DNA of 64,000 nt, taken from an uncultured Ignavibacteria bacterium. Lineage in GTDB: Bacteria; Zixibacteria; MSB-5A5; JAABVY01. The position numbers and the translations under genes were made by a program. Below the pieces are notes generated by a model. The model saw nothing but the letters and a program-made list of their open reading frames with translations, was not told the DNA's origin and made no database searches. The first letter of the stretch is position 1, and each line of letters begins with the position of its first letter. This document shows, in pieces, positions 20,607-43,814 of this stretch. Where the stretch lies: contig CAZVLB010000001.1 of NCBI GenBank assembly GCA_964627935.1, positions 308,626-372,625 of the forward strand, in the 5' to 3' direction.

Positions 20607-20790
20607 TTTACAGCTAAGCGAAAATTGGGGGCGCCCGACCGCTTGATTGCTGTTTATTGGCAAGAAATATCTATTCTTGATATTTCTATACTGGCCTGTT
20701 TTGTCCATTTATACCCCGATTTTATCGCGAACCCATCAGCCCAATATTTGTTTACATCTATGGTAATTGAATACAACTGGAAGGGTAAAT

Positions 20791-22278
20791 ATGAAATTAG
20801 CAAAGACACTGGGCGAACTGAAAAAGATGGGCTATAAAAGCCTCTCCACAAAAGATGAACTCAGAAAAAACCTGATTCGCATGATAAAGGAAAATAAACC
20901 TCGTTTTCCGGGCATAATCGGCTACGAACGCAGTGTTATACCACAACTGGAAAACGCCATACTTTCAAGGCATGATCTGCTTCTGCTGGGTCTGCGCGGC
21001 CAGGCCAAGACACGGATCCTGCGTCAGTTGAGTAACCTGCTGGATGAGTATATACCGGTCATCAAGGGCAGTCAATTGAACGAGGATCCATTTGTGCCGA
21101 TTTCGGATAAATATATCAAACTGGCCTCAGAGGCCGGGGATGAACTGGAAATCGAATGGCTGCATCGTGACCAGCGCTACAATGAAAAGCTGGCCACCCC
21201 GGATGTGACCGTGGCCGACCTGATCGGCGATCTCGATCCGATTAAGGCCGTGCGCGAGAAGCTGGATATTTCCAATGAAGAGGTGATTCACTGGGGTATT
21301 GTCCCGCGCACAAACCGGGGCATATTTGCAATCAATGAGCTTCCCGATCTTCAGCCGCGTATCCAGGTGGCGCTCTTAAATATTCTCGAGGAAAACGATC
21401 TTCAGATTCGCGGATTTCCGATTCGAATTCCATTGGATATGGTGCTGGCATTTACAGCCAATCCGGAGGATTATACCAACCGGGGCAATATCATCACGCC
21501 CCTGAAGGATAGAATTGCCTCGCAAATAAATACGCATTATCCGAAAAATCTCGAAGATTCGCGCAGGATCACCGAGCAGGAGGCCTGGGCCACGCGTGAT
21601 GTCACCATCCAGGTACCGGATATAATGAAAGATATCATCGAGGAAATAGCATTCCGTGCCCGTGAAAGCGAATATGTCGATCAGACCTCCGGAGTATCGG
21701 CCCGTCTGACAATATCGGCCTATGAAAACCTGCTTTCCAATATCGAGCGGCGCGCGGCAATAAATAACGACAGTGATATATATCCGCGAGTTTCCGACCT
21801 GTATGCGGTTCTTCCATCTATTATGGGCAAGATTGAACTGGTTTATGAAGGCGAGCAGGAGGGGCCCAATATCGTGGCCGTAAATCTTATCGGTGAGGCG
21901 GTCAGGGCCGTATTCGATCGTGTATTTCCTCCTCCCAGGACCGAGCACAGAAGAGCACAAATTGATGATGATGAAATCGATCATCCCTCACTGCGCGAGG
22001 AATCTATCTATGAGCCGATTGTCGATTTCTTTTCGTCCGGCCGCAAGCTGGAGATTTCCGATGAAATGCCCTATGCCGAGTATAAGAAATCGCTGTATGA
22101 TATTGTGGGATTGAAAGAGATCGTCAAGAAATACCTTGAGCCCAAAGATGAACATGAGCTTCTGGTGATGATGGAATTCGTGCTCGAGGGGCTCCATCAG
22201 TTCAATATCATAGCCAAGGAATCGCCGGACAACAAATATATTTACACCGATATGATTCAGAGAATCCTGAGGAGCTGA
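20791..22278 (+). CDS. AAA+ ATPase of the Mg-chelatase/MoxR-like group with deviant Walker A
   Basis: GLRGQAKTR P-loop-like motif, Walker B-like IFAINELPD, arginine-rich sensor region; start at ATG 20791 with SD GGAAGG (the ORF track begins at an upstream TTG). Followed immediately by a VWA gene. Confidence 0.6.
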   Translation: MKLAKTLGELKKMGYKSLSTKDELRKNLIRMIKENKPRFPGIIGYERSVIPQLENAILSRHDLLLLGLRGQAKTRILRQLSNLLDEYIPVIKGSQLNEDPFVPISDKYIKLASEAGDELEIEWLHRDQRYNEKLATPDVTVADLIGDLDPIKAVREKLDISNEEVIHWGIVPRTNRGIFAINELPDLQPRIQVALLNILEENDLQIRGFPIRIPLDMVLAFTANPEDYTNRGNIITPLKDRIASQINTHYPKNLEDSRRITEQEAWATRDVTIQVPDIMKDIIEEIAFRARESEYVDQTSGVSARLTISAYENLLSNIERRAAINNDSDIYPRVSDLYAVLPSIMGKIELVYEGEQEGPNIVAVNLIGEAVRAVFDRVFPPPRTEHRRAQIDDDEIDHPSLREESIYEPIVDFFSSGRKLEISDEMPYAEYKKSLYDIVGLKEIVKKYLEPKDEHELLVMMEFVLEGLHQFNIIAKESPDNKYIYTDMIQRILRS

Positions 22279-22283
22279 CAACT

Positions 22284-23375
22284 ATGCGTTTTATATATTC
22301 GGAATGGGATGATTCCGCTTTTGAACAATTGAAATATATGCGCGACCTGATGTCGATCTTTAATTACCTGTTGCTTCAAGTCAATGGCGATGCGGATCGG
22401 GCATTGGAGCTGATGCGCAAATTGAAGGGCGCGGGAGTCCTGCCCAAAGATTATGATCTGGAGAAATTCGAAAAACAGCTCCAGAAAGACAACATGGTTC
22501 AAAAGCAGGATCAAAGATTTTCCCTGACACGCAAGGGTGAGCGTGGTCTCAGGCGCGATTCCTTCGAGCAGATTTTCCAGCATCTGCGCAAAGCCGGTCC
22601 GGGTGGCCACAAAATACCGCTGGATGGCGGGGCATCAGAAGAAGCATTGCCCGAAAAGCGGGATTATAAGTTCGGCGATGAATTCAGTAAGATCGATTTT
22701 AAATCATCGTTGATGAATTCGATCACACGCACCGGTTCGCTGGGCATGGATATGTCCGAGGAGGACCTGGAGGTTTATGAGGCCGAGCAGAAAACCAGTT
22801 GCGCGACTGTGATGCTGATCGATGTTTCTCATTCGATGGTACTCTACGGCGAGGATAGAATTACGCCTGCCAAGCAGGTGGCCATGGCATTTTCGGAGCT
22901 GATTCTTACAAAGTATCCCAAGGACAGCCTCAATATCGTTCTTTTCGGCGATTTCGCTAAAGAGGTGCAGGTCAAGGAACTGCCTTACATCGGGGTGGGA
23001 CCGTATCATACCAATACCAAGGCCGGGTTGCAGATGGCGCGCAATATTCTCTTGAAAAAGAAGAATGTAAACAAGCAGATCTTCATGATCACCGACGGTA
23101 AGCCCTCGATGATTAACCGCCGCAATGGCAGTATATACAAAAACCCGATCGGGCTCGATCCGGTGATTGTTAATCGTACGCTGGATGAGGCGATAATCTG
23201 CCGCCGCAAAAAAATCCCGATTACGACATTCATGATTACTGACGATCCCTATCTGCAGCAGTTCGTGGCCAGGATGACCGAACTCAATCATGGCCGGGCC
23301 TATTTTTCATCTGCGCAGAATCTGGGCGATTATATCTTCTGGGATTTCGTCAGCCATCGACGCAAAAAGAAATAA
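22284..23375 (+). CDS. von Willebrand factor type A (VWA) domain protein, partner of the upstream AAA+ ATPase
   Basis: MIDAS-like motif (VMLIDVSHSM) and Rossmann-like VWA core (IFMITDGKPS). Confidence 0.7.
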   Translation: MRFIYSEWDDSAFEQLKYMRDLMSIFNYLLLQVNGDADRALELMRKLKGAGVLPKDYDLEKFEKQLQKDNMVQKQDQRFSLTRKGERGLRRDSFEQIFQHLRKAGPGGHKIPLDGGASEEALPEKRDYKFGDEFSKIDFKSSLMNSITRTGSLGMDMSEEDLEVYEAEQKTSCATVMLIDVSHSMVLYGEDRITPAKQVAMAFSELILTKYPKDSLNIVLFGDFAKEVQVKELPYIGVGPYHTNTKAGLQMARNILLKKKNVNKQIFMITDGKPSMINRRNGSIYKNPIGLDPVIVNRTLDEAIICRRKKIPITTFMITDDPYLQQFVARMTELNHGRAYFSSAQNLGDYIFWDFVSHRRKKK

Positions 23376-23430: not shown

Positions 23431-24513
23431 TCAAAATCTTACCAGAAATCCGAGTGTTGCCGAGAAGCTGTCATATTCAAAAAGCTTATAGGTTGAATTA
23501 TTATTCTGATAATCTATTCTTAAAGATGGCTCCAGGTGTAAACCCGAACTCATCGGCATCGGCCAGCTGGCATTCAGGTACAGCCGCCTCTGGTCGTCAT
23601 TGCGATGCCTGACCCAATCGAGGGGCTCGAGGCTGGTCAGAAAACGTTTATCCCAGTAACCCGCTCCGCCTGTCAGGATTACGCTGGGTATTATATATGC
23701 CTTAAGATTCAAGATAACCGACCTGCCATCCCAGACCGAGGCCCATGGCGACAAAAAGCCGGTGGCATAACTGAGCACATACTGCCCTCCATAATCGGAG
23801 AACTCGGAATAATAAAATGTCAGGTTCATGCCGATTTTATTGCCCAGCGGACGGGAATAGCGGGGGGAGAAGTAAAACATCTTCAGGTCACCTTCGATAA
23901 AACCCAGCACCTGGGGCCAGGTGTAAATCGTTGATGTGTCGATGTAATTATAATTGGCGAATGAATAACCGACCTCGAGGTCAAAGCTGTTTTTGCCGAA
24001 CAGGGTGACATTGCTTCCCGCGAAAATCTCGAAGGCCTCTTTATCGGCTTCATCGGAGTTGACATATTTCGAACTGCTGTATTTGGCCCCAAAACGTATC
24101 TGCGCAGTACCCGTAAGATTAAATCCCATAGATGCCAGCATATCCAGGTCATTTGTGTTATAGACACTGAATGACTCTCGATATGAACGACTCTGATAGT
24201 TAAGATTGAGGTACAGCGCCAGGGGAAAATTATCGGGAGTCGGAATGGCGGTTATCGATCCGCCCGCTACAATATTGCCCAGGCCGACAATTTCATGATA
24301 ATAATTGTATTCGCTGTTCAGACTGATTTCCACCTGGGGAATTGGATAATAATTAAATCTGCCGGCCGAGCGTGAATAAGAATCGCTTATCCCCGATGAA
24401 TCGAGCAGAAGATTGTCGCTGAAGTTCTTGCTGAAATTGAATTCAAAACCGAAATCGGCATAGGCGCCTGATGCCATCAGGAGAATTAAAGCGGAAACAA
24501 GTAATGATTTCAT
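23431..24513 (-). CDS. Putative outer-membrane beta-barrel protein
   Basis: Signal peptide (LLVSALILLMASGAYA), alternating hydrophobic/aromatic-rich beta-strand pattern, C-terminal ...LGFLVRF ending in Phe. Confidence 0.6.
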   Translation of the reverse strand: MKSLLVSALILLMASGAYADFGFEFNFSKNFSDNLLLDSSGISDSYSRSAGRFNYYPIPQVEISLNSEYNYYHEIVGLGNIVAGGSITAIPTPDNFPLALYLNLNYQSRSYRESFSVYNTNDLDMLASMGFNLTGTAQIRFGAKYSSSKYVNSDEADKEAFEIFAGSNVTLFGKNSFDLEVGYSFANYNYIDTSTIYTWPQVLGFIEGDLKMFYFSPRYSRPLGNKIGMNLTFYYSEFSDYGGQYVLSYATGFLSPWASVWDGRSVILNLKAYIIPSVILTGGAGYWDKRFLTSLEPLDWVRHRNDDQRRLYLNASWPMPMSSGLHLEPSLRIDYQNNNSTYKLFEYDSFSATLGFLVRF

Positions 24514-24531: not shown

Positions 24532-24978
24532 TCAGTAACACACTCCGCCCGGGCAGCCGCTCGAGACTGCGCCGCTGCCAATACCATTGCCGGCCCCGAA
24601 ATCATTACCGGCCTCGAAGCCGCCGCGCAGGCTGGAAATCCCGCAGCAGTTGCTTGAAAGCCTGCCGAATCTTTCGGAGTTGGCCATGTATATTGTCAGG
24701 TCGAATGTGTTTAGCTGTCCAAAAGGTGAATTGGTGGGCTGTTCTATATCTTCATTTGATTCCTGATTGTATTCGTTTTCCTTGTTCTCGGAAACATCCG
24801 GGATCCCGTTGGCATCTTCATCAGTCAGATTATCATCAAAACCATCGCCGTCACGGTCGACAAATGATTCTTCGGCCTGTTTGTCCCTCTCAACATCATT
24901 CGCCGAAACAAATGCCGGTATGATCAGAAATAGAGTAAACATAAGGAGTGTGAGAGTTTTAATCAGGGTTGATCTCAT
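24532..24978 (-). CDS. Small secreted acidic protein with calcium-binding-like DxDGDG motifs and a Cys/Gly-rich C-terminus
   Basis: Start at internal ATG preceded by AGGAGG; signal peptide; DRDGDGFDDNLTDEDANGIPD (TSP3/EF-hand-like); C-terminal GNDFGAGNGIGSGAVSSGCPGGVCY. 19 bp upstream of the OMP gene, likely co-transcribed. Confidence 0.5.
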   Translation of the reverse strand: MRSTLIKTLTLLMFTLFLIIPAFVSANDVERDKQAEESFVDRDGDGFDDNLTDEDANGIPDVSENKENEYNQESNEDIEQPTNSPFGQLNTFDLTIYMANSERFGRLSSNCCGISSLRGGFEAGNDFGAGNGIGSGAVSSGCPGGVCY

Positions 24979-25183
24979 GCTGATCCTCCTGCTGTCTATA
25001 CAAAGCTTTAGGTTTGATTTTTCTCGCATTCAATTGAACTATAATATATACGCTTAAAAATATAATCAATTAGCTAAGTTTATCAAGAAGATAAACTATT
25101 TTCTTCGTATCACATATAAACAAAATAACACAAGTGATCCAATATCAGCAAATTAAACCAATTTGGCCGGAAAATGCCATAAA

Positions 25184-25210: not shown

Positions 25211-25294
25211 TGCAAAATTTACTTATTTTATAATGATTACTGGCCAAAATGCCTTGCTTAAATGCTACTGCTAACATATAGGAGGAATAGCCTC

Positions 25295-26722
25295 ATGCGC
25301 ATCACGAGATGTAAACACATCCGGCATTCTGGCGCAATTCTATTTTCTCTCCTGTTTTTATTGATCTCAGCAGTTACACTGACAGCCTCGGACTTCGTGG
25401 CTGACAAGGACAAAGCCTGTCTCTATGAAGGCAATCTTGAAAGTGTGCAACCGGCTGATCATGAATTTCCGGAGGGTCTTAAGAATCGTGCGCCCTACCA
25501 GGGGGTATTGAAAATTTATGTCTGCGAAAAGGTCTCACGTTATAATGATTATCAGGGCGATCCCTACGAGCATGGATTTCTTGAGTTTGCCTATGATACG
25601 TCATTGAATCTCGAGTATCAGCAGACATTTAATCGCACGCTTACATGGGATCCCGCCAATCATGGCTGGAGCGGCGTTACCTCCGATAATATCGAGGTGA
25701 TCGCGGTACTTTTTAACCACATGGAAGGCCATCATGCTTATTCCGATCCGCCCAGCGGTGGTCATTTTCTGGCCTACTATGCTGATGCGACTGCAAAGGC
25801 CGAACCGGGTGGAACCGGCCATAATCAGGCCAGTGGCAGTTATACTCATACAGTATTTGTTGAAGAAGCAACATCGGGTACATGAGGATCCTGTCCAGCA
25901 ACGCGGGTCGCGTTGAGCACACTGTACGGGTTCGGAACCCACAATTTCCACTATGTTGCATTAGTTACCCAAAATTCATATGTTGGCCAGAGATTGAGCC
26001 AGCTAAATACCTACTATACTCCAACGACATACATCGATGCCGGCCAATCGCTTGTGGTCGGTGGCTACAGTAACCCCAGTTATTATGGCGGATTTATTGA
26101 AACCTCCGGCGAAAGACAGGTGCCCGAAATAGACCTTATCGTCAGTATGACCGCACAGGCAGGAAATACATATGAAATTGATATTTCGGCAACCCTGAAT
26201 ACTTTTATCAATGCCCCACCAAACAAGCCCTCGATCCCGGCCGGCGTGCAGCAGGGCACACTCATGACCGATTAAACTTACACAAGCTCGACAACTGATA
26301 TTGAAGGTGACCAGTTGTGGTACAAGTGGGACTGGGGTGACGGTCAGCAGAGTGACTGGCTGGGACCGTATGAATCCGGCGAGGAAGCTTCGGCTACTCA
26401 CAGCTGGGATGTGTCAAATACATACCAGATCAAGGTCAAGGCCAAAGATATCTATGATGCCGAAAGCTTATGGTCGACAGCATTCTTTGCTTATTTTGAA
26501 GGTATGCCATATATTTGCGGTGATGCAAACGGCGATGAGGGGATCAATGTCTCCGATGCTGTCTGGATCATCAACTATGTGTTCGTAACCGGAAGTCCTC
26601 CACCGGATCCATTGGAATCCGGCAATGTCAATTGTGACAGCGGAGTGAATGTCTCCGATGCTGTCTGGATCATCAATTACGTTTTCGTAACCGGCAGCCC
26701 CGGACCATGCGAATGCAAGTAA
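25295..26722 (+). pseudogene. Secreted PKD-domain / dockerin-like protein gene interrupted by two in-frame stop codons (TGA 25883-25885, TAA 26273-26275)
   Basis: ORFs 25262-25885, 25913-26275 and 26315-26722 are all in the same frame. SD GGAGG and signal peptide at the 5' end; a PKD domain (TYTSSTTDIEGDQLWYKWDWGDG...) straddles the TAA; the dockerin-like module is at the 3' end. Confidence 0.6.
26546..26694 (+). repeat. Intragenic tandem duplication of the dockerin-repeat coding segment (two ~47-bp near-identical copies, 102-bp period)
   Basis: AATGTCTCCGATGCTGTCTGGATCATCAACTATGTGTTCGTAACCGG (26546-26592) vs AATGTCTCCGATGCTGTCTGGATCATCAATTACGTTTTCGTAACCGG (26648-26694); related copies occur in the five other dockerin-family genes on both strands. 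Confidence 0.8.
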
Positions 26723-27026: not shown

Positions 27027-29531
27027 ATGCAATCGGACAGCTCATGCGCCAAAAAATCAAATGTGATTAGAATCACTATTCTTTCATTTTTTTCTGTACT
27101 GGTCTTGACTGCGGCCCTCTATGGCGGAGAGGTCACGGTCAGTTATGATTTCCAGGCTCCTGTTATTGAGAAGGTCATAATCGATGGCAAGATGTATGAT
27201 CGAGTGATCATGCCACAGACCTCGAATGGGGGAGAGACGGGCGAGCCCTCATTGCCATCCTCCGGAGCAAAAATTCTGATTCCGGCCAACTCCCGGGTTG
27301 AATCAATCCAGGTTACATTGGGTGATGAAATCTCCCTGGGCGATGGATTCTCAGTCGAGCCGTGTGGCTATCCGTTCAAGCTAAGCGCGCCCGAAGAGAT
27401 AGTTCCACCGCAACCGGATGCACAGATATATTCATCCGATGAGGCTTTTCCGGGAATAACGTATGAGCGAATAAATACTTATACATTGCGTGGCTATGAT
27501 ATCCTTATCCTTAAGCTTAATCCGGTACAGTATAAGCCGCTCAGCGGTGAACTTTCCTATTCTGATCAAATGCAGATTACTGTCAATACTGCAGATGCAG
27601 TTTACAGCAGGGAGACTTTTCGGGGAACGGCATCGGATGAACAGTCCGTGATCGATATCGTGGACAATCCCGAGACAGTTTTTTCGTATCGATCACTGCC
27701 GTCAAAAAATTATGGCGGCCGCGATCAATATGATCTGTTGATCATCACCAGCGAGGCGCTTAAACCGGCTTTCGATACGCTCAAGGCCTACCATGATTCC
27801 ACCGGAATGTCGACCTCGATACGAACCGAAGTCGATCTTGATATTTCCAGCGCATACCTGGTGAGAAAGTATATCAGGGATTTCTATAATGACTATGGAA
27901 TCGAGTATGTCCTGATAGGTGCGGATGATAATATCATCCCGGCTATGGATCTGTATGTGAAATCGTGGGACGGATATAATCCAGAAATTGAATATGAAAT
28001 GCCCGGCGATATCTACTTCGCCTGCCTTGATGATACATGGAATCATGACCGCGATGAGCACTGGGGAGAACCCAATGATGGGCCCGACGGCGGTGATGTC
28101 GATCTTATGGCCGATGTAAATGTCGGCCGTGCCTCTGTGGGCAATATCCCTGAGGCCAACAACTTTGTGCGCAAGACCATTGATTATGCCAACCTGTCCC
28201 GTTCGCAGCCGTATTTGCAGAATATCCTGCTGGTGGGTGAACATCTCGGTTTCGGGGGAGTCAGCGAATATGCCGGTAACTGCATGGATCAGCTCAAAAA
28301 CACATCATCATCAGACGGCTATACGACAACCGGGTTCGACACCAGCCTGTATGTTGTCGACCAGCTTTATGACCGCGACTGGACCGGAAACAACTGGCCC
28401 AAGGCTCAGGTTGTAAATCGCATAAATGAGGGCCGTCATTTTGTAAATCACCTCGGTCATGGCAGTCCCGGCTATGCCATGAAAATGTATAACAGCGATG
28501 TTGCCTATCTGACCAATGATGATTACTGCTTTGTATACTCGCAAACCTGCCTGGCGGGACATTTTGATAACACAGATTGTTTTGCCGAGTATATGACCAT
28601 AAAATATATGAATGGCGCATTTGCAATTGTCATGAATGCCCGTTACGGCTGGGGAATGTCAAACAGCACCGATGGTCCCTCGCAGAGATTCCACAGGCAG
28701 TTCCTGGATGCGATTTATGCCGAAAACACGCGCTCATTCAGCAAAGCCAACCATGATTCCAAACATGACAACCTGTATCGAATAAATCAGAGCTGTATGC
28801 GCTGGTGCTATTATGAGCTCAACCTTTTCGGCGATCCGACACTGGAGATGAATTATCACTGCGTCGATCCGGATGCCGATGGTTTTGCCACGCCCGGTTA
28901 TGAAAACAGCGAATGCCCGACCGACAACTGCCCCGGTTTTTATAACCCGGATCAGCTCGACAGCGACGGCGATGGTTTCGGCGACAGCTGTGACCTGTGC
29001 CAGGGATTCGATGATAATATAGACAGCGATGCCGATGGTGTCCCGGATGGCTGTGATATGTGCGCCGGTTATGACGATTATGCCGATGCGGATGAAGACA
29101 CTGTTCCGGATGGCTGCGATGTCTGCCCGGGTCATGATGACCTTCTGGACAGCGATGGCGATCTGCTGGCAGATGGATGTGATAACTGCCCCGATCATGC
29201 CAACGCCGAACAGCTCGATTATGACCAGGATGGGGTCGGAGATTTATGTGATAACTGTCCCGGCGACAGCAATCCGGATCAGGCCGATTCAGATTCTGAC
29301 GGTACCGGCGATGTCTGCGAATACATATGCGGTGACTGTAATGCCGATGGCGCGGTGAATGTCTCCGATGCGGTCGGTATTATCAATTACGTGTTCGTCT
29401 CAGGCAGTCCGGAACCGGATCCGATGGAATCCGGGGATGTTAATTGTGATGATAATGTTGATGTGTCCGATGGTGTTTACATCATCAACTTTATCTTTAC
29501 AAATGGGGATAACCCCTGCGACTGTGAATAG
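27027..29531 (+). CDS. Secreted clan-CD cysteine peptidase (gingipain/C25-like) with thrombospondin type 3 repeats and C-terminal dockerin-like module
   Basis: Signal peptide; His-Gly (VNHLGHGSPG) and Cys (YSQTCLAGHFD) dyad motifs in caspase-like order; ~8 TSP3-like repeats (DxDxDGxxDxCDxC); C-terminal CGDCNADGAVNVSDAVGIINYVF...PCDCE. Confidence 0.6.
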   Translation: MQSDSSCAKKSNVIRITILSFFSVLVLTAALYGGEVTVSYDFQAPVIEKVIIDGKMYDRVIMPQTSNGGETGEPSLPSSGAKILIPANSRVESIQVTLGDEISLGDGFSVEPCGYPFKLSAPEEIVPPQPDAQIYSSDEAFPGITYERINTYTLRGYDILILKLNPVQYKPLSGELSYSDQMQITVNTADAVYSRETFRGTASDEQSVIDIVDNPETVFSYRSLPSKNYGGRDQYDLLIITSEALKPAFDTLKAYHDSTGMSTSIRTEVDLDISSAYLVRKYIRDFYNDYGIEYVLIGADDNIIPAMDLYVKSWDGYNPEIEYEMPGDIYFACLDDTWNHDRDEHWGEPNDGPDGGDVDLMADVNVGRASVGNIPEANNFVRKTIDYANLSRSQPYLQNILLVGEHLGFGGVSEYAGNCMDQLKNTSSSDGYTTTGFDTSLYVVDQLYDRDWTGNNWPKAQVVNRINEGRHFVNHLGHGSPGYAMKMYNSDVAYLTNDDYCFVYSQTCLAGHFDNTDCFAEYMTIKYMNGAFAIVMNARYGWGMSNSTDGPSQRFHRQFLDAIYAENTRSFSKANHDSKHDNLYRINQSCMRWCYYELNLFGDPTLEMNYHCVDPDADGFATPGYENSECPTDNCPGFYNPDQLDSDGDGFGDSCDLCQGFDDNIDSDADGVPDGCDMCAGYDDYADADEDTVPDGCDVCPGHDDLLDSDGDLLADGCDNCPDHANAEQLDYDQDGVGDLCDNCPGDSNPDQADSDSDGTGDVCEYICGDCNADGAVNVSDAVGIINYVFVSGSPEPDPMESGDVNCDDNVDVSDGVYIINFIFTNGDNPCDCE

Positions 29532-29550
29532 TATAATTTAGTATAAAGAC

Positions 29551-29590
29551 GGCCCGGTCAGAGCTTTTGGCCGGGCTTCTTATTATTTGA
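29551..29590 (+). terminator. Rho-independent terminator after the C25-like peptidase gene
   Basis: GCCCGG-tcagagcttttg-CCGGGC followed by TTCTTATTATTT. Confidence 0.6.
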
Positions 29591-29614
29591 CAAATTTCGC
29601 ACTTGAGTTATATT
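29587..29614 (+). promoter_or_regulatory. Putative sigma-70-type promoter for gene 29729-31210
   Basis: TTGACA (29587-29592), 16-bp spacer, TATATT (29609-29614); same architecture as the 26843 element. Confidence 0.3.
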
Positions 29615-29728
29615 CTCATAAGGTACAACCGGCCATCAGGGCCGAAATTACCTGCCTTAAATTTACAGGCTTGATTCATAGACCTTAGTACCCGATAGTA
29701 AATATATATTGCCTGAAAGGGACCTGTT

Positions 29729-31210
29729 ATGAAATTAAAATCAGCATCACTAATTATTTTCATGCTTCTAATGGCCGCTGTAACATTAAACGCTGCCAAC
29801 CGGGTGATAATGAATTCGATTCCGCAATCGCCGGTTCATAATACGGAAACTGTTCTTCAGATTGTGACTCAATGGGAAAACGACATCCTTCTGCAGGGCG
29901 TTTCCAATGGATTCGAGTTGACTGTCAGTGGAAATATCGTTTGTGAGATAGATTCCGGAAGTGCCGCAATCGTAGCAGGAAGCCGTCTTGACGGCGCAAT
30001 GGGCTGGAATTTCCGCTATTACCAGGCGCCGTTCGATTCAATAATCATGGGCGGTATCTATATTCCCGGCACATATGATGGTGTGCCCGCCGGAGCATTA
30101 GCTGATGCCTGGACAATGGACCTGAACCTGTCTTATCCCGGCGGAGATCCGGTAACAGATACAGGAACGGTATGTATTGACTCATTGTCGATCTCACCCT
30201 CGGGGCAGTGGATCTGGGATGACGGTACGGGAAACATCAATCCGACTTTTAATGACGGCACGGGTCCGTTGTGCATAGAGGTTGTCTGGCAGATTTGTAC
30301 CGATTCCGATAATGACGGCTATGGTGATCCCGGATTTCCCGAGAATGAATGCCCTGATGATAACTGTCCCGATGTCTTCAATCCGGATCAGCTTGATTCC
30401 GACGGTGATGGTGTCGGCGATTTGTGTGATATCTGCCCCAATCATGAGCTGGATGATTGCTGTAATCCCACAGTAGATAATAATGCACCTCAGATTACAT
30501 CACCATCCAGTATAACGGTTCTTCCGGTTGTGGATGAGGTCAATTATATTGCTGAATGTGATGATCCCGATTGTTCGGGCGGTGAATTGATTTTCAGTGT
30601 CGAGAATGTGCCCGCATGGCTGATTCTCAATGGCGATACGATAAGCGGCACGGCATCATGCGGCGAAGAGGATGCATTGCTGAGACTGATCGTTTCCGAC
30701 GGCACATTGGCGGATACGCTGATAGTCACGGTTGATGTCGATAATAGCAACCAGGCACCACAGATTACAGATCCGGCCGATACGATCAAAGTCTATAACG
30801 GTACTGAATTTGTGTATTATCCGACCATCGATGATCCTGATGATGCTACCCATACGATTAATTATCTGGCATTGCCCGACTGGGCCTCGGTCGTAAATGA
30901 CAGTGTTAAGGCCACCGTACCGTTGGTCAATAATATTCAGGACCTGACAGTGGCTGTCTCCGATGTTTGCGGCGCGGACACATTGAGCTTCCCGGTCTGG
31001 GCCTATATCTGCGGTGATGGTAATAATGACGGCGATGTAAATGTCAGTGATGCTGTCTGGATCATCAACTATGTTTTTGTCAGTGGTGATGCTCCGCTGC
31101 CGATTGAGGCCGGAGATGCTAACTGCGACGGCGATGTTAATGTCAGCGACGCGGTCTGGATCATTAACTTTGTATTCGTCAGCGGCCCGGCCCCCTGCGA
31201 GTGCCCATAA
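29729..31210 (+). CDS. Secreted protein with TSP3 repeats, Ig/cadherin-like domains and C-terminal dockerin-like module
   Basis: Signal peptide (LIIFMLLMAAVTLNAA), TSP3 repeats (DSDNDGYGD...CPDVFNPDQLDSDGDGVGDLCDIC), C-terminal [23 protein letters not shown]...PCECP. Confidence 0.65.
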   Translation: MKLKSASLIIFMLLMAAVTLNAANRVIMNSIPQSPVHNTETVLQIVTQWENDILLQGVSNGFELTVSGNIVCEIDSGSAAIVAGSRLDGAMGWNFRYYQAPFDSIIMGGIYIPGTYDGVPAGALADAWTMDLNLSYPGGDPVTDTGTVCIDSLSISPSGQWIWDDGTGNINPTFNDGTGPLCIEVVWQICTDSDNDGYGDPGFPENECPDDNCPDVFNPDQLDSDGDGVGDLCDICPNHELDDCCNPTVDNNAPQITSPSSITVLPVVDEVNYIAECDDPDCSGGELIFSVENVPAWLILNGDTISGTASCGEEDALLRLIVSDGTLADTLIVTVDVDNSNQAPQITDPADTIKVYNGTEFVYYPTIDDPDDATHTINYLALPDWASVVNDSVKATVPLVNNIQDLTVAVSDVCGADTLSFPVWAYICGDGNNDGDVNVSDAVWIINYVFVSGDAPLPIEAGDANCDGDVNVSDAVWIINFVFVSGPAPCECP

Positions 31211-31233
31211 TTTGTTTACAATTAAGTGATTTC

Positions 31234-31265
31234 AACCCGGTCGAAAAGTGGCCGGGTTTTTTTGT
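31234..31265 (+). terminator. Rho-independent terminator after gene 29729-31210
   Basis: ACCCGGTC-gaaaagtg-GCCGGGT followed by a 7-T run. Confidence 0.65.
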
Positions 31266-31569
31266 TTGCTGATCGTGATTTAGAAAACATATTTGTCAAT
31301 TTGCCGTACACCATACTGATCCCTCGAACCATAATTGAACTGTCAAAATTAAAACTGCGAATATTGTTCTCTCTGCCTTCCCCAGTGATGAGGGCGTTTT
31401 CCAATTTCTCCTTACCTTGTCACGCAACGATGCCGGGCGGATTGCATGGCCGCCCGGCGCTTTAATATTATCTGCAATTTTGCGATTGACTAATTAAACC
31501 AAAACCTTAGATTTATTATATACTCCATATAATTTGGAAATTCCGCATACCCTTTCCCTGGAGTGAAAA

Positions 31570-33222
31570 ATGAAAATCAAATATTTTTCCGTACCGGTGA
31601 TAATTTGTATGCTTTTTATGGGTGAAACACTTCTCGCCCAGCAAAGCACTACCGGCCCGGTACCGCCCGAAGGTGTTGATCTGGGCTCGACATTGAAGTC
31701 AAGGTCGCAGGTGACGATTGAAGGGGTACCCCGTTATATCTGGCATCACGGCTGTGGGCCGACTGCGGCCGGCATGGTGATTGGCTATTGGGATGGACAT
31801 GGCTATGGTGACCTTGTTGATGGTGAGGCGATGGTCCAGCTCGGAAATGTCAAGACAATGATTGCAAGCGATAACGGCCTGGCGGTCTGCAATGATGTCT
31901 TCGCCGATCATTACCGCGATTATTCATGTCCGCGTGATGACACGGGGCCGCTTCTGGCCGATAAATCTGAGACAGGTGGAGCGCATGAAAATGAATGCCT
32001 GGCTGATTTTATGAAAACATCATGGAGCTCAATCGGCAATCGTTATGGCTGGAGCTATGACAGTGATTTGCAGATTTCACTGGATCAATATGTGCCGTAT
32101 GTAAATCCGGCCTATAGCGTGGAGACCGAGAATATTGCCTGCTGGGATGCTGAATTCAGTTGGCAAAGATACAAGGCCGAAATCGATTCCGGGCGGCCGG
32201 TGGTACTTCTGGTTGACACTGACAGCGACGGTTCTACCGATCATTTTGTGACAGCGATCGGCTATGATGACTCAAGCCTGGAATATGGAATATATAATAC
32301 ATGGGACACACAGCTTCACTGGCACAGCTGGGCCGATATTTCCCCGGGCCAGCCCTGGGGAGTTTACAGCATGACGACAATGAAGTGGACCGGTATATGT
32401 GTTGATTCAGATGGCGATAACTGGGGCGACCCCGGTCATCCGGAAAACATATGCGATACCGATAACTGCCCGGATGTCTACAATCCAGCCCAGGATGATA
32501 CAGATGGCGATGGGCTGGGTGATGCCTGTGATCCTGATATCGATGATGATGGATTCCTTAATGAAGATGACAACTGTCCCTATGCTCACAATATTGATCA
32601 GTCCGACACTGACGGCGACAACATAGGTGATGTCTGCGATAATTGCCCGATAGTTTCAAATCCGATGCAGTGGGATGAAGATTCCGATGGCGTCGGAGAT
32701 GCCTGCGACGGCCAGTTGCATATGCAATGCTATGATGTGCCCGATGGAATAATAGGGGAGCCGTATTCATATCAATTCCAGGCTGTGGGTGGTGTGACAC
32801 CCTATAACTGGGAAAAAGTCTGGGGGCAGTTCCCCTATGGTTTGAGTTTCGACAATCAAACAGGGATACTGCAGGGCATACCGACATGGGAGTCGGATTA
32901 TAGTTTCCGTATGCGTGTTACCGATTCCGATTCACCGATGAATGAAGATACCATGCTGATTACGATAGTCATCAGCCAACCACCGCAACCGGATTATATC
33001 TGCGGGGATGCAAATTCCGATGACGACGTCAATATCAGCGATGCCGTATTTGTCATAAATTATATTTTCGTTGCCGGTACTACTCCCGATCCGATTGACT
33101 CGGCGGATACGAATTGTGATGATGGTGTCAATATCAGTGATGCAGTCTGGATTATAAATTTCGTTTTTGCCGGCGGCAATGCGCCCTGTGATACGAATGA
33201 TGATGGTCAGCCCGACTGCTGA
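31570..33222 (+). CDS. Secreted papain-like cysteine peptidase (C39/C10-like) with TSP3 repeats, He_PIG-type Ig domain and C-terminal dockerin-like module
   Basis: Signal peptide; putative catalytic Cys in [17 protein letters not shown]; TSP3 repeats; putative Ig motif ([29 protein letters not shown]); dockerin-like C-terminus. Confidence 0.55.
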
Positions 33223-34230: not shown

Positions 34231-35277
34231 ATGGTAGGAATTGTTGGATATGGTGCCAAGATACCCCGGCATCGTATTAAAGTGGAAGAAATTGCCAAAG
34301 TGTGGGGTGCTGATGCCGAGAGTTACAAGCGCGGGCTTCAGCTGACAGAGAAATCGGTCCCCGCACCGGATGTCGACTGTGTCACACTTTCAGTGGAGTC
34401 GACACGCTATGCATTGAAGCGGGCCGGGATTCAGGGCAGTCAGATTGGCGCTCTGTATATCGGCTCCGAATCCCATCCCTATGCGGTCAAGCCCTCCGGC
34501 ACGATCTGTGCCGAGGCGATCGGTGCCACACCGCATTGTCATAATGCGGATTATGAATTTGCCTGCAAGGCCGGTTCCGAGGCGATGTTTGTCGCCATGG
34601 GCCTGGTCAAATCTGGCTTTGTCGAATATGCGGCCGGAATCGGCGCAGATACATCGCAGGGAGCTCCCGGCGACGCCCTGGAATATTCCGCGGCGGCTGG
34701 CGCTGCATCATTTATCATGGGCAGCGACAACATCATTGCCGAGCTTTTATTCCAGCACTCGTGGATGAGTGATACCCCTGACTTCTGGCGCCGCGAGCAT
34801 GAACATTATCCCCAGCATGGCGGAAGGTTCACTGGCGAACCGGCCTATTTCACGACTATCACAGGTTGCGCCAAGGCTCTTCTGGAAAAATCCGGAATGA
34901 AGCCCGAGGATTTCGCCTTTGCGGTATTTCATCAGCCCAACGGCAAATTCCCGATGAGGATCGGCAAGATGCTGGGCTTCGAGCGCGAACAGCTGGAAAC
35001 CGGATGGCTCGTGCCGGTTCTCGGTAACACCTATTCCGGCGCATCTCCGATCGGCCTGACGGCTATCCTGGATATCGCCAAGCCGGGTGATAAGATTTTC
35101 ATGTGCTCGTATGGCTCCGGCGCGGGATCTGACGGTTTCATATTCCAGGTCACCGACCGAATCAAAGAGGTCCAGGACCTGGCTCCCAAGACCCGTCCCC
35201 AGCTGGATGAAAACAAAATCTATGTCGACTATGGCACGTATGCCAAGTTCCGCAAGAAAATTTTGAAAAACGCTTAG
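34231..35277 (+). CDS. Hydroxymethylglutaryl-CoA synthase, archaeal-type (short ~350 aa form)
   Basis: N-terminus MVGIVGYGAKIPRHRIKVEEIAKVWG is the hallmark of archaeal-type HMGCS; thiolase-fold condensing enzyme with active-site Cys; followed by thiolase and OB-fold partner genes. Confidence 0.8.
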   Translation: MVGIVGYGAKIPRHRIKVEEIAKVWGADAESYKRGLQLTEKSVPAPDVDCVTLSVESTRYALKRAGIQGSQIGALYIGSESHPYAVKPSGTICAEAIGATPHCHNADYEFACKAGSEAMFVAMGLVKSGFVEYAAGIGADTSQGAPGDALEYSAAAGAASFIMGSDNIIAELLFQHSWMSDTPDFWRREHEHYPQHGGRFTGEPAYFTTITGCAKALLEKSGMKPEDFAFAVFHQPNGKFPMRIGKMLGFEREQLETGWLVPVLGNTYSGASPIGLTAILDIAKPGDKIFMCSYGSGAGSDGFIFQVTDRIKEVQDLAPKTRPQLDENKIYVDYGTYAKFRKKILKNA

Positions 35278-35289
35278 GAGTTAATAGAA

Positions 35290-36450
35290 ATGAGAGATGT
35301 AGCTATTATAGGCGTTGGCATGACCAAGTGGGGAGAGATTTGGGAAAAGTCCCTCCGCCAGCTTTTTGTTGATGTCGCCATCGAGGCGATTGCCGATGCC
35401 GGTATAGAAGATCTGGATGGTATGTATATTGGCAGCATGTCTCCCGGTCTGTTTGTCGGTCAGGAACATATTGGTTCCCTGATGGCCGACTACATGGGCC
35501 GCAGACATCTTCCCGCCGCCAGAGTTGAATCAGCCTGTGCCTCGGGCGGACTGGCAGTTAAAACCGCTTTTCTGGATGTGGCCTCCGGGTATTCCAATAT
35601 CGTCCTGGCGGGCGGTGTTGAAAAGATGACCGATGTTTCCGGTGACGGCGCCACATATGCGCTGGCAACCGCCGCCGACCAGGAATACGAAGTGTTCCAT
35701 GGCGCGACATTCCCGGGCCTGTATGCCATGATGGCCCGCCGTCATATGCATGAATACGGCACAACACGTCGCCAGCTTTCATCAGTGGCAGTCAAGAATC
35801 ATGAGAACGGCTCCAAGAATCCCTATGCCCAGTATCCTTTCAAGGTCACTCATGAGGGCGTGGAGAATTCGACTATGGTCGCCGATCCGTTGACAATCCT
35901 GGATTGTTCGCCGATCACAGACGGCGCCGCGGCGGTGATTCTGGCCGATATGGAAACGGCCAAGAGAGTCTGCAAGGATAAGCCGCTGGTTAAGATCATC
36001 GGCGTGGGCCATGCCACAGATTCGATCGCATTGCATGACCGCAAATCACTTTCCGGCCTGTCCGGTACTCGTGTGGCGGGCGAAAGAGCCTACAAGATGG
36101 CCGGCAAGACACCTGAGGATATCAATGTTGCCGAGTTCCATGACTGCTTCACGATTGCCGAGATCATGGTTTTGGAAGAACTTGGTTTTTGCGAGAAGGG
36201 CAAAGGCGGAGAATACACCGAATCCTGCAACACGCATATTGGCGGCAAGATTCCGGTCAACACCTCCGGCGGCCTGAAATCCAAGGGTCACCCGGTCGGC
36301 GCCACAGGCGTTGCCCAGGTGCTCGAAATCACCAAACAGCTTCGCGGCGAATGCGGTGATCGCCAGGTGGAAGGCGCCAAAGTCGGCCTGACACAGAATA
36401 TGGGCGGTACCGGTGGTTCAACTGTTGTGCATATACTGGAGGTGGTCTAA
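35290..36450 (+). CDS. Acetyl-CoA C-acetyltransferase, archaeal-type thiolase (partner of HMGCS)
   Basis: [17 protein letters not shown]-terminus, thiolase-fold motifs ([11 protein letters not shown]; GHPVGATG); stop overlaps the next start (TAATG). Confidence 0.8.
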
Positions 36451-36845
36451 TGTTTCCGGCAAGAATATGGAGAGAAAGGCCGCAGAGATATCGTCTCGAG
36501 GCGGTCAAGAATAAAGCCACCGGCGAGGTCTATTTCCCGCCCCGCGTGGTAGACAGAGACGGCAAGAAGTTCGAAGCCGAAAATTATATCCTTCCCAGCG
36601 AAGGAAAGATTCATACCTATACAATCATCGAGGTTCCTCCCAGCCAGTTCAAAGATGAGGCTCCCTATGTTGTCGGTATAGTCGAGCTTTCCGATGGTAC
36701 TAAGCTGACCTGCCAGATCACCGATCTGGCCGACAAAAGCTGGCTTGGCATCGGCAAGAAAGTTCGCCTGGAATTCAGAAGAGTCCAGACCGACAGCCAT
36801 CATGGAGTATTGTCTTACGGCTATAAAGCCGTGCCGGCGGAGTAA
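36450..36845 (+). CDS. OB-fold (DUF35-like) acyl-CoA-associated protein, scaffold partner of thiolase/HMGCS
   Basis: 131-aa protein in the conserved third position of thiolase-HMGCS-DUF35 operons; OB-fold-like pattern; the Zn-ribbon cysteines appear to be absent. Confidence 0.6.
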
Positions 36846-36847
36846 CG

Positions 36848-38458
36848 ATGTATTCACGAATTGAATCGAAGATCGACACATCCTCGGCGGACTTCAAAAA
36901 AAATCGGGAGGAAAACCTAAAACTCAGAGATGGGTTTTTAGAGAAACTGGAAGTCATCAAAAAGGGCGGACCGGATTACATGGTCGAGCGCCACAAGAAA
37001 CGTGGCAAGATGACCGCGCGTGAACGTCTGGCCGCTCTCTTCGACAAGAATACGCCGTTTCTGGAATTATCGCCCCTGGCGGCATATGACATGTACGAAA
37101 ATGAAGCCCCCTCGGCCGGGATGATCACCGGTATCGGTGTTGTCCGCGGCCGTGAGGTGCTGGTTATCGCCAATGATGCCACAGTCAAGGGCGGAACATA
37201 TTTTCCCATGACAATCAAGAAGCACGTGCGTGCCCAGCAGGTTGCCATGGAAAATCACCTGCCCTGTGTCTACCTGGTGGATTCCGGAGGAATCTTCCTG
37301 CCCCATCAAAGCGGGACATTCCCGGACCAGGGACATTTCGGACGGATTTTCTACAATCAGTCTGTCATGTCGGCCATGAGCATTCCACAGATTTCGGTGG
37401 TCATGGGTTCATGCACCGCCGGTGGTGCCTATGTGCCCGCTTTGTGCGATGAGACTGTCATTGTCAAGAAGCAGGGTACGATCTTTATCGGCGGCCCGCC
37501 TCTGGTGAAAGCCGCAACCGGTGAATCGGTAACCGATGAGGAATTGGGTGGCGCGGATGTACACTGCCGTATTTCAGGCGTGGCCGATCATTATGCGCAA
37601 AACGACCAGCATGCGATTGAAATCACACGTTCGGTTGTGGAATCGCTGGATCATCCGGCCAAATTCAAACTCAATCGTATCGAACCTGAGGATCCTTATT
37701 ATGATCCTGAGGAACTCTATGGCGTAGTGCCTGCCAACCTGCGCAAGCCCTATGATATTCGCGAAGCTATAGCACGAATTGTTGACGGCTCGAGATTCCA
37801 GGAATTCAAAGAATTATACGGCCAGACACTGGTGACCGGCTTCGCGCGAATTATGGGCTATCCGGTTGGCATAATCGGCAATAATGGTGTGCTTTTCTCG
37901 GAGAGTTCTGTCAAGGGAGCACATTTTATCGAGCTCTGCACCGAACGCCAGATTCCGCTTATCTTCCTGCAGAATATCAGCGGATTTATTGTCGGCAAGC
38001 AGTATGAGCATGGCGGCATTGCCAAAGACGGCGCCAAGATGGTGCATGCTGTGGCCAATGCCAAAGTGCCCAAGTTCACCGTTGTAATCGGTGGTTCATA
38101 CGGCGCCGGTAACTATGCCATGTGCGGACGTGGCTATTTCCCGCGTCTGATGTGGATGTGGCCGAATGCCAAGATCTGTGTCATGGGTGGTGAACAGGCT
38201 GCCGATGTGCTCTGGACCGTCAAGAAACGTCAGCTCGAGAAAAAGGGCGTGAAAATCACCGGGGATATGGAGCGGGAATTCAAGAAGCCGACACTGGAAC
38301 GCTACGAATTCGAATCGACGCCATATTATTCCGGGGCGAGGCTCTGGGATGACGGCATGATCGATCCGGTCGAGACGCGCAGGATGCTGGCGCTGGGTAT
38401 TTCCATGTCGCTCAATGCCGATGTGCCCAAGACCAAGTACGGTGTATTCAGGATGTAG
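36848..38458 (+). CDS. Acyl-CoA carboxylase carboxyltransferase subunit (methylcrotonyl-CoA carboxylase beta-like)
   Basis: Carboxyltransferase motifs ([22 protein letters not shown]; [11 protein letters not shown]; [13 protein letters not shown]); 536 aa as in MCC beta. Confidence 0.8.
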
Positions 38459-38475
38459 CCGGGAAGGATTATCCG

Positions 38476-39261
38476 ATGGCTGACTATGAAACCATTAAAT
38501 ACAATAAGGACGGCAATGTTGCACGGATAACGTTCTGCCGTCCCAAAATCCATAACGCCTTCAATTCGACTATGATCCGTGAGCTTTATGATCTCTTCAG
38601 CAAGATGAGAGATGATAATGACATCCGGGTTGTGGTCATAACCGGCGAGGGCAAGTCCTATTGCGCCGGGGCCGATTTGAACTGGATGCGCGATGTGGTC
38701 AGGTATTCCTATGAACAGAATCTCAAGGAATCGCTGGAACTGGCCATGCTCTTCCGCACAATCTATGAATTCCCGCGCCCGGTGATCGGGCGAATCAATG
38801 GTGCCGCTATCGGTGGCGGGACGGGATTCGTGGCTGTAACGGATATTGCAATTGCGGCCGAATCGGCAGTGTTTTCATTTTCGGAGGTCAAGATCGGCGT
38901 GGTGCCGGCCTGTATTTCGCCCTATGTGGTCAAACGCGTGGGCGAGGGCCGTGCCCGTGAATTCTTCCTGACCGGCGAACGGCTGACCGCGCAACGCGCA
39001 TTGGATTCGGGCCTGGTCAATCGTATGGTGCCGGATGATAAGCTGGATGACGAGGTAGAGGCCATGGTCAAACAGCTGTTATCTTCCGGGCCGGATGCCC
39101 TGGCTATGTGCAAGGAACTTTTGGCAACCATAGCCGACCAGAATATCGGCGAATTCGAAAAATATACCGCCGAGGTGATCGCGACATTGCGCAAATCAGA
39201 TGAGGGACAGGAGGGTATGGACGCTTTTCTGAACAAACGCAAACCGAATTGGGTGGAGTAG
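38476..39261 (+). CDS. Enoyl-CoA hydratase (crotonase family; probable methylglutaconyl-CoA hydratase)
   Basis: Crotonase fold motifs (VVVITGEGKSYCAGADL; GRINGAAIGGG); position between MCC subunits. Confidence 0.75.
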   Translation: MADYETIKYNKDGNVARITFCRPKIHNAFNSTMIRELYDLFSKMRDDNDIRVVVITGEGKSYCAGADLNWMRDVVRYSYEQNLKESLELAMLFRTIYEFPRPVIGRINGAAIGGGTGFVAVTDIAIAAESAVFSFSEVKIGVVPACISPYVVKRVGEGRAREFFLTGERLTAQRALDSGLVNRMVPDDKLDDEVEAMVKQLLSSGPDALAMCKELLATIADQNIGEFEKYTAEVIATLRKSDEGQEGMDAFLNKRKPNWVE

Positions 39262-39271
39262 ATAATCAAAC

Positions 39272-40774: not shown

Positions 40775-40775
40775 A

Positions 40776-41285
40776 GTGGATTATGAACTTGTTTTAGATG
40801 GTCAGGAATACTTCGTTTCGATTTCCAAAGGCAAGAACGGCTATACAGCCAAAATCGGCGATGAGGAATTTTCGTTCGAGCAAATAGATTTTGAAACCGC
40901 CTGCTTAAAGTTAAATGTTAACGGTGTGCCCAAAACCGTATATGTGGCAGGTGAAAATGAAAAGTGCTACGTTCATGTCGACGGGCTCGTGCATACGCTC
41001 GAAATCCCCTCGGAGGAATCATCGGCAGGCGCCGGATCATCGGATTTAATTGTCGATGGCAAACAACTGGTGGTCGCGCCTATGCCGGGCAAGATTGTCG
41101 ATATTCCGGTCAAGGTCGGGCAGGCGGTCAAGGAAAAAGATATTCTCTGCGTGGTCGAGGCGATGAAGATGGAAAACGAAATCCGCTGCATGGTCAAGGG
41201 TGTGGTCAAGGAAATCGGCTACAAGGCCGGTGACCTGGTCGGCACCGAGGAAACGATCCTGATAGTCGAGGCGGCCGAGGAATAG
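40776..41285 (+). CDS. Biotin carboxyl carrier protein (biotinyl domain)
   Basis: Biotin attachment motif CVVEAMKMENEI; start set at GTG 40776 with SD GGGAGG 6 nt upstream (the ORF track begins at 40743). Confidence 0.8.
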   Translation: MDYELVLDGQEYFVSISKGKNGYTAKIGDEEFSFEQIDFETACLKLNVNGVPKTVYVAGENEKCYVHVDGLVHTLEIPSEESSAGAGSSDLIVDGKQLVVAPMPGKIVDIPVKVGQAVKEKDILCVVEAMKMENEIRCMVKGVVKEIGYKAGDLVGTEETILIVEAAEE

Positions 41286-41319
41286 ACTTTTTCTGCATAT
41301 GTGGCCCTTCAAAATTTTC

Positions 41320-41353
41320 AACCCACCGTTCCATGATGGTGGGTTTTGTTTTG
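41320..41353 (+). terminator. Rho-independent terminator after the BCCP gene (end of the acyl-CoA carboxylase operon)
   Basis: CCCACC-gttccatgat-GGTGGG followed by TTTTGTTTTG. Confidence 0.7.
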
Positions 41354-41731
41354 TACGTTATTATGGACCGCGTCAGTTCACCGTTCCGATAAATCGGGAC
41401 TAAGGAACTGATGCAACACCGGTAGCATTTGCATCGATGAATAGGGATCGGGATAAAGATAACCAAAATGTTGTAATTGCAGGCGCTGGGTGGCCGGCTC
41501 AAACTTTGTTTGGGCCGGATAGAAACGCAAAATATGCCTATATCATCCAAACCTCGACTTGAATACCATACCTCTTTAGTATACATAATCTTATTGCCCG
41601 AAATGATTTGCCCGCAGGCGTGATATTTATTATATTTGAGAATTGTTTCACAAGATAGAGGCCTTCCATCCGGGAGGGAATACCTGTAAATAGTAGTATT
41701 TATCAATAAATCTGGACTCACGGAGGAATAG

Positions 41732-43801: not shown

Positions 43802-43814
43802 ATGAGGAGTTTAT

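Follow-up and report, generated by a model that had tools for sequence, protein, structure and literature searches.

The locus and its reading frame

The window, as we call the whole 64,000-nucleotide stretch of DNA analyzed here, belongs to contig CAZVLB010000001.1 (positions 308,626 to 372,625) of GenBank assembly GCA_964627935.1, an uncultured bacterium labeled as Ignavibacteria and assigned to the Zixibacteria in GTDB. On its forward strand lies a gene for an apparently exported protein of the thioredoxin fold that is interrupted by an in-frame UGA codon and carries an RNA hairpin shortly downstream of it. Comparison with relatives of the gene makes it highly probable that this UGA is a selenocysteine (Sec) codon and that the hairpin is its recoding signal, with insertion that would depend on SelB. 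The ancestral gene spans 25295-26722 and is composed of the following features.

25280..25285, + strand: Shine-Dalgarno sequence AGGAGG, 9 nt ahead of the ATG at 25295, seen directly in the sequence
25295..25882, + strand: 5' part of the gene, with signal peptide (MRITRCKHIRHSGAILFSLLFLLISAVTLTA/SD, the slash marking the apparent cleavage site), beta-sandwich, and first strand of the thioredoxin fold (HTVFVEEAT), from alignment and an AlphaFold2 (AF2) model of homolog P0005
25883..25885, + strand: in-frame UGA read as Sec, from its alignment with the Cys of a CxxC motif and TGA in relatives
25883..25894, + strand: predicted redox motif U-G-S-C (Sec at 25883-25885, resolving Cys at 25892-25894), from alignment
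25899..25915, + strand: hairpin of the bacterial selenocysteine insertion sequence (SECIS) type, 7-bp stem CAACGCG/CGCGUUG and GGU loop, from family-wide comparison
25886..26272, + strand: coding part after the Sec codon, with the remaining thioredoxin-like domain (PT motif of the cis-Pro type, helices) and a linker, from alignment, model, and substitution rates
26273..26275, + strand: premature TAA inside the PKD domain, in place of a Tyr codon (TAC/TAT) conserved in relatives
26276..26722, + strand: in-frame rest of the ancestral gene, with the PKD domain and a dockerin, natural stop at 26720-26722, from Pfam and substitution rates

The ATG at 25295 coincides with the start of database protein P0001. 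From this codon, a single frame crosses the TGA at 25883-25885 without a frameshift and enters the open reading frame (ORF) listed at 25913, exactly as an earlier reading of the same letters (hereafter, the original prediction) had described for the frame of 25295-25885. The read-through product is ...HTVFVEEATSGT-U-GSCPATRVALSTLY..., with the local context VFVEEATSGT-U-GSCPATRVAL, and translation likewise reproduces the predicted ...ATSGT-U-GSCP... with its U-x-x-C arrangement.

Relatives carry Cys or TGA at the aligned codon

A database search recovered full-length homologs that read VFVEEATATW-C-PYCP where the window gene reads VFVEEATSGT-U-GSCP. In an alignment of 10 sequences (A2), the UGA column corresponds to the first Cys of a CxxC motif, both Cys columns (C132 and C135) are invariant, and so are the THTVF strand before the motif and a P-T pair beyond it. 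Two further database hits stop exactly at the position of the UGA, two others start just past it, and in the DNA of these truncated hits (L001, L002, L003, and L008), TGA occupies the same codon and is followed by xxC.

Scans of genome and metagenome collections supplied 159 further loci for codon comparison; 43 motif instances, representing 35 distinct sequences, have TGA at the aligned codon, and 105 have TGT or TGC. A covariance model built from the 35 sequences detected six more TGA sites beyond its training set (three in L053 and one each in L081, L073, and L055), each with UxxC and frames open on both sides; the model also detected one candidate TGA site in L124. The comparison of orthologs suggested along with the original prediction has therefore returned Cys at exactly this position or else TGA, the latter in at least 40 distinct relatives with conserved frames on both sides, which come from Zixibacteria, Ignavibacteria-labeled, and unclassified bacterial metagenome-assembled genomes (MAGs) and share just 35-75% protein identity. 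At least one TGA copy is present in 10 of the 13 Zixibacteria-labeled species representatives, a mixture of TGA and Cys copies is found in the Ignavibacteria-labeled and unclassified bacterial MAGs, and all archaea-labeled loci (Thermoplasmatota and others) have Cys.

Past the TGA, most TGA-type genes continue as an open frame for about 270-285 codons. The ratio of nonsynonymous to synonymous substitution rates (dN/dS) is 0.19 before the TGA when the window is compared with L001, and in the comparison with L003 it is 0.215 for the segment from the TGA to the TAA. Given this ratio and the open frame, the segment past the UGA has evolved as coding sequence, so that the TGA can in effect be neither a nonsense mutation nor a sequencing error nor the boundary of two separate genes.

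Tandem paralogs of the family (Sec and Cys, or Sec and Sec) occur within one locus in L016, L021, L022, L029, L035, L042, L043, L045, L053, and L054, the richest array, in L053, holding three TGA-type copies and one Cys-type copy. In the bacterial loci L073 and L081, which have TGA at the same position, very long ORFs (649-837 codons downstream) carry the thioredoxin domain close to their N-terminus.

A conserved and covarying hairpin follows the UGA

The hairpin after the UGA of the window gene, CAACGCG-GGU-CGCGUUG, covers 17 nt (25899-25915) and has the perfect 7-bp stem, thirteen nt past the UGA, that had been noted previously; its loop begins 20 nt after the UGA, and its folding energy is -8.0 kcal/mol alone and -9.3 kcal/mol with short flanks. 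Published constraints for bacterial SECIS elements comprise an apical loop of 3-9 nt, an upper stem of 4-16 bp, a G in the first two loop positions, a distance of 16-37 nt from the UGA, and a minimum free energy of at most -7.5 kcal/mol (PMC13188914). With its GGU loop, 7 bp, 20-nt spacing, and energy, the window element lies within all these limits.

Comparative evidence comes from the family as a whole. In 33 of the 35 TGA-type sequences, the loop of the best stem starts 18-23 nt after the UGA, and all of these have a G in the first two loop positions, with stem sequences that vary by lineage (CAACGCG, GCAAGG, CAACCAG, CGCAGCC, AGGGCC, CAGUACG, and GAAGCGGC). The mean best-stem score is 5.73, compared with 4.55 +/- 0.18 in synonymous-codon shuffles that preserve the encoded amino acids, and the observed value is reached in 0 of 300 shuffles. 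In the register of the window hairpin, 66-68% of cells are paired, both sides change in 7 of the 8 pairs, and covariation amounts to 0.30-0.32, a value equaled in 0 of 500 shuffles; these pair counts understate the pairing because the covariance-model alignment leaves lineages with 4- and 5-nt loops in different registers. All slid registers score below that of the window; the runner-up, the -2 slide, corresponds to the 5-nt loops.

The hairpin is, moreover, a property of the TGA-type genes. At +18 to +23, the stem score is 5.67 for Sec-type sequences versus 2.53 for Cys-type sequences (p = 1e-16), and with the comparison limited to genes for one shared peptide, x..C.x[TAV]R..L, a stem score of 5 is reached in 18 of 27 Sec-type genes versus 0 of 14 Cys-type genes (p = 3e-6). 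The covariance model assigns 26-57 bits to TGA-type sites, except that two of the six sites outside its training set receive about 21 bits, and at most 24 bits to Cys-type sites; its sole match in the window is at 25883. The core of the original prediction, that a secreted redox protein contains a Sec codon followed by a SECIS-like hairpin, is thus supported by both the homolog comparison and the covariation of the hairpin.

Protein architecture and fold

By eye, the N-terminus looks like a signal peptide of the general secretory (Sec) pathway, with a charged n-region, a hydrophobic core, and an A-x-A-like cleavage site. An AF2 model was made for P0005, a Cys-type homolog of the same architecture that is 36% identical to the window protein, and consists (mean predicted local distance difference test score, 82) of an all-beta domain, a thioredoxin fold, a PKD domain, and a dockerin. 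The thioredoxin fold of this model follows the order beta-alpha-beta-alpha-beta-beta-alpha, with CxxC at the start of helix 1, and a Foldseek search with the model retrieved the thioredoxins 1uvz, 3vfi, and 7c3f with probability 1.0 and target template modeling scores of 0.57-0.60. The pair P178-T179, invariant in A2, immediately precedes a strand in the P0005 model, where the proline would be in the cis conformation.

At the sequence level, similarity to known families is faint. A profile search against the sequences of the Protein Data Bank gave weak matches (E = 0.002-1) that were almost all to thioredoxins, glutaredoxin, and thiol-disulfide oxidoreductases; an archaeal homolog matched PF13098 with an E-value of 2.2e-5 and 25.2 bits, under the gathering score of 27, and the isolated thioredoxin-like domain of the window protein had no Pfam match at E <= 10. 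From the P0005 fold together with the profile matches, the UxxC is placed at the site of the redox-active CxxC of a thiol-disulfide oxidoreductase. Downstream, Pfam PKD and Dockerin_1 both score above the gathering threshold once the TAA is read as Tyr, the PKD match spanning the TAA and the dockerin following it. In P0009, P0011, P0012, and P0014-P0016, the core domains are reversed, with the thioredoxin-like domain first and a beta domain with 'RLKIYLTE..SRW' second.

Relationship to known selenoprotein families

Of the 119 prokaryotic selenoprotein families in a 2026 catalogue, many are thioredoxin-fold proteins with UxxC, including Sec-containing thioredoxin, thiol:disulfide interchange protein, DsbA-like, DsbG-like, redoxin, and TlpA-like families (PMC13188914). 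The window protein resembles these bacterial families in that Sec would replace the N-terminal Cys of CxxC at the start of helix 1, Cys-type homologs exist, and a stem-loop with a G-containing apical loop is located 16-37 nt past the UGA; several of those families are also exported. It differs from them in the beta-sandwich, PKD domain, and dockerin that are joined to its thioredoxin domain, and their Pfam and NCBIfam models give no match to the protein, even at E <= 10 for the isolated domain.

The closest approach to a curated family is to the Omp28-related selenoprotein NF045500, described as 'hypothetical protein GOS_C', which has the Trx-like (thioredoxin-like) fold with UxxC, an unknown function, and many Cys homologs (PMC2398784). 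The two share a similar local motif, E-E-x-T-x-x-x-[C/U]-x-x-C-P, and NF045500 is the sole curated selenoprotein model with any match, at 10.8-14.1 bits against a cut-off of 200 and across 27-77 residues. With a score so far under the 200-bit cut-off, membership in the Omp28-related family was rejected; the domain order and accessory domains also differ, and NF045500 may be at most a distant relative of the window family.

The literal tetrapeptide U-G-S-C of the window protein recalls the UGSC-containing selenoprotein family NF041046, membership in which was likewise rejected, since neither the whole protein (E <= 1) nor the domain (E <= 10) gave a match. The motif varies within the window family (UGSC, UPGC, UPSC, UPYC, UQFC, USSC, and others), so that the agreement with NF041046 is coincidental.

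The SECIS of Escherichia coli fdhF, the reference for bacteria, has a 17-nt upper stem-loop that is required at a fixed short distance past the UGA, with an apical G-U that is contacted by SelB. The window hairpin also has 17 nt and a GGU loop, but differs in its spacing of 13 nt rather than 11 nt, in lacking a bulged U in the stem, and in having no sequence similarity to the fdhF element outside the loop.

In public records, the TGA-type genes are annotated as a 'hypothetical protein' of about 180-198 aa, ending six residues past HTV..E, plus a 'PKD domain-containing protein'. Such split annotation is found in the GenBank and MAG records behind P0008, P0050, P0053, P0060, and P0065, and none of the records examined has the Sec codon annotated. 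We found no paper that ties Sec to dockerin-bearing proteins.

The premature TAA and the state of this copy

The TAA at 26273-26275 is in frame with 148 more codons (26276-26719) that complete the PKD domain and the dockerin. At this position, L001, L003, and L008 have a Tyr codon, TAC or TAT (...LMT[DE]-Y-TYT...), and the TAA is shared only with assembly L007, which matches the window at 100% identity across 7172 nt and therefore represents the same population. Past the TAA, the codons are intact and dN/dS is 0.08-0.11 against relatives. As judged from these alignments, the TAA is a nonsense mutation and not the natural stop of the gene, and, because the codons beyond it are intact and conserved, the change is recent, polymorphic, or an error. 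The original prediction was right that the gene has a TAA stop further on; that TAA, however, does not mark the natural end of the gene, since the frame continues and relatives have a Tyr codon there. Translation from the upstream start reaches the remainder encoding PKD and dockerin only if the TAA is bypassed.

The alternative that survives best is that the gene is a recently dead pseudogene in this population, in which the UGA and hairpin are intact relics and the TAA at 26273 ended function. This scenario is compatible with a Sec codon and has a real, though less than even, chance of being correct. It draws on the replacement of a conserved Tyr inside the PKD domain, on the 129 codons that remain past the UGA here versus about 270-285 in most Sec-type relatives, and on the loss of the dockerin, the presumed anchor. 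On the other hand, no frameshift or further stop has accumulated in 475 codons, the hairpin is perfect, the ribosome-binding site and signal peptide are intact, the truncated product would retain complete beta-sandwich and thioredoxin domains, and the TAA is known from a single population (the window being the same as L007), so that a sequencing or consensus artifact or a polymorphism is possible.

Weighing the selenocysteine reading

Several observations weigh against UGA 25883-25885 as a functional Sec codon. Of all the window's TGA triplets, about 2.6% pass a hairpin-only version of the published bacterial SECIS criteria, and the 43-63 nt region folds no more stably than shuffled sequence (z near zero), so that the window hairpin alone is weak evidence, even if the 23-nt hairpin by itself stands out against shuffles (z = -2.5). 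The strict hairpin-only energy cut-off is passed by just 13 of the 35 TGA-type hairpins, a low rate that arises because stems of 4-6 bp alone miss -7.5 kcal/mol, and we judge this filter too harsh. A scan of the window at the Rfam gathering thresholds matched no family and no SECIS model. The shuffle statistics and the comparison of Sec-type with Cys-type genes ignore phylogeny; the paired Sec and Cys paralogs inside single loci argue against a purely phylogenetic artifact. Neither the 64-kb window nor 837 kb of related DNA contains selA, selB, selD, or tRNA-Sec, and we found no paper on the use of Sec in Zixibacteria. Finally, if the TAA is real, the product of this strain may be 326 residues without PKD and dockerin, or nothing useful.

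The lack of Sec genes in the DNA searched also bears on a second alternative, bypass of the UGA without selenium, either through hairpin-stimulated near-cognate read-through by a Trp or Cys tRNA or through lineage-wide reassignment of UGA. Downstream structures are able to stimulate read-through in some systems, and the Sec machinery was not observed in the DNA at hand. The scans behind this negative result carry little weight: ARAGORN and tblastn on the 837 kb found no tRNA-Sec and no hits, in a set of short flanks and with E. coli SelA and SelD queries, and a tRNA scan of the 64-kb window found no tRNA. Among 40 Pfam-supported window genes, 18 end in TGA, which is the commonest ordinary stop in the window, and none has an internal TGA. 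The code is thus standard and the recoding would be local, and genome-wide reassignment of UGA (codes 4 or 25) was ruled out by this stop-codon usage. Other same-frame ORF pairs parted by TGA in the window resemble adjacent genes. Against any form of selenium-free bypass, moreover, the position is that of the catalytic Cys of CxxC, and a loop G within the first two positions at 18-23 nt is the signature of a bacterial SECIS. Also, the archaeal members belong to lineages that rarely use Sec (PMC13188914), and all of them have Cys. Altogether, we regard selenium-free bypass as very unlikely.

A plain nonsense mutation or sequencing error, with a coincidental hairpin and U-x-x-C, could appeal to the 2.6% of random TGAs that are followed by such a hairpin and to the real nonsense codon, the TAA, in the same gene. 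It would have to explain a TGA shared at this codon by at least 40 distinct sequences of 35-75% protein identity, downstream frames that are open and under purifying selection, and a hairpin that covaries and is missing from Cys-type genes. With both the 5' and 3' frames coding, the UGA aligned to Cys, and the covarying hairpin conserved in relatives, a nonsense mutation is rejected for the TGA, and its probability is minimal; the original prediction had held that plain nonsense could explain the gene equally well, which fails for the conserved, probably recoded TGA and holds for the TAA that replaces a conserved Tyr. The split into two genes that gene callers yield, a 196-aa protein ending at the TGA and a second protein starting from TTG 25913, is just as improbable, as it would separate the first strand of the thioredoxin fold from the CxxC helix, the Cys-type homologs are single uninterrupted ORFs, and the two halves invariably share one frame, with the stop falling at the same codon.

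Gene neighborhood

The family gene is flanked by genes that recur beside it elsewhere; the entries counted below include the window and duplicate contigs.

23431..24513, - strand: secreted protein of 360 aa with the end ...LGFLVRF, conserved neighbor
24532..25029, - strand: small secreted protein of 165 aa with DxDGDG motifs and C-terminal GC[AP]GGVC[HY] (C-x4-C), conserved neighbor and candidate redox partner
27027..29531, + strand: C25 (gingipain-type) cysteine peptidase with dockerin, first of a dockerin-bearing run up to 33222

The 165-aa protein, which always ends in ...GAV.GGC[AP]GGVC[HY], adjoins the family gene in 24 entries, with varying gene order and strand. The 360-aa protein, possibly an outer-membrane beta-barrel as judged by eye, does so in 42 entries and several gene orders, and a C25 homolog in 15 entries. 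Neither of the two divergent upstream neighbors (24532-25029 and 23431-24513) matches Pfam. The window shares with the Zixibacteria MAG L003 the order of a pair of AAA_5 and VWA genes, two divergent Pfam-less genes, the family gene, and dockerin-bearing C25 and C39-like peptidases. The placement of the window in Zixibacteria or a near relative is based on synteny and on protein identities of 53-57% to labeled MAGs.

The AAA_5 (MoxR-like) ATPase and the VWA-domain gene, at 20767-23375 (+ strand) directly upstream of the cluster, are syntenic with L003. Secreted peptidases with C-terminal dockerins are encoded at 27027-33222 (+ strand) and 51714-56607 (- strand) and include C25 gingipain-like and C39-like enzymes and two M1 aminopeptidases, along with a dockerin-only protein; they suggest a proteolytic surface assembly of the cohesin-dockerin type, although no search for cohesins was made. 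Between these two regions, at 34231-46105 (+ strand), a long same-strand run of acyl-CoA metabolism genes encodes thiolases, a carboxyltransferase, an enoyl-CoA hydratase, a biotin carboxylase and carrier, a 3-hydroxyacyl-CoA dehydrogenase, and two acyl-CoA dehydrogenases. From its gene content, the run looks like a pathway for the degradation of leucine or branched-chain compounds, which would fit a protein-degrading lifestyle.

The family is common to bacteria (Zixibacteria and Ignavibacteria-labeled MAGs) and archaea (Thermoplasmatota and one Aenigmatarchaeota MAG), at 35-45% identity, a distribution that suggests transfer between the two domains. C25 peptidases often adjoin the family gene in both bacteria and archaea.

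Proposed mechanism and implications

Under the established bacterial mechanism, SelB carrying Sec-tRNA(Sec) would bind the 17-nt hairpin at 25899-25915, and Sec would be inserted at the UGA in place of termination. The product would be an exported protein composed of a signal peptide, a beta-sandwich resembling immunoglobulin or carbohydrate-binding module folds, and a thioredoxin-fold domain with U-G-S-C, followed ancestrally by PKD and dockerin, in which Sec would stand in for the attacking Cys of a CxxC thiol-disulfide oxidoreductase. The gene neighborhood suggests that the protein acts outside the cytoplasm, where it may engage in disulfide exchange with the adjacent small C-x4-C protein or may keep the dockerin-bearing cysteine peptidases, or their substrates, reduced. 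In the window, a second and unrelated event, the change of TAC or TAT to TAA at 26273, would remove PKD and dockerin and leave at best an untethered selenoprotein of 326 residues, the copy perhaps being newly inactivated.

Thioredoxin-fold proteins with UxxC are the commonest type of bacterial selenoprotein, so that the mechanism as such is unsurprising. The split records mean that dozens of gene models in MAGs of Zixibacteria and related bacteria would be wrong at the Sec codon, and the codon itself implies the use of Sec by these uncultivated lineages, on which we found no published statement. With its tandem Sec and Cys paralogs and all-Cys archaeal homologs, the family would be a good natural system for the study of Sec/Cys exchange.

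A Sec active site on a secreted dockerin protein beside cysteine peptidases points to extracellular, selenium-dependent redox chemistry. We tentatively propose, at somewhat less than even confidence, that these genes form an uncatalogued selenoprotein family, an extracellular, dockerin-anchored, Sec-dependent oxidoreductase of Zixibacteria and relatives that would function with the C-x4-C protein and the putative outer-membrane protein in a dockerin-peptidase surface assembly. If this is true, the family would represent a selenoenzyme serving extracellular protein degradation.

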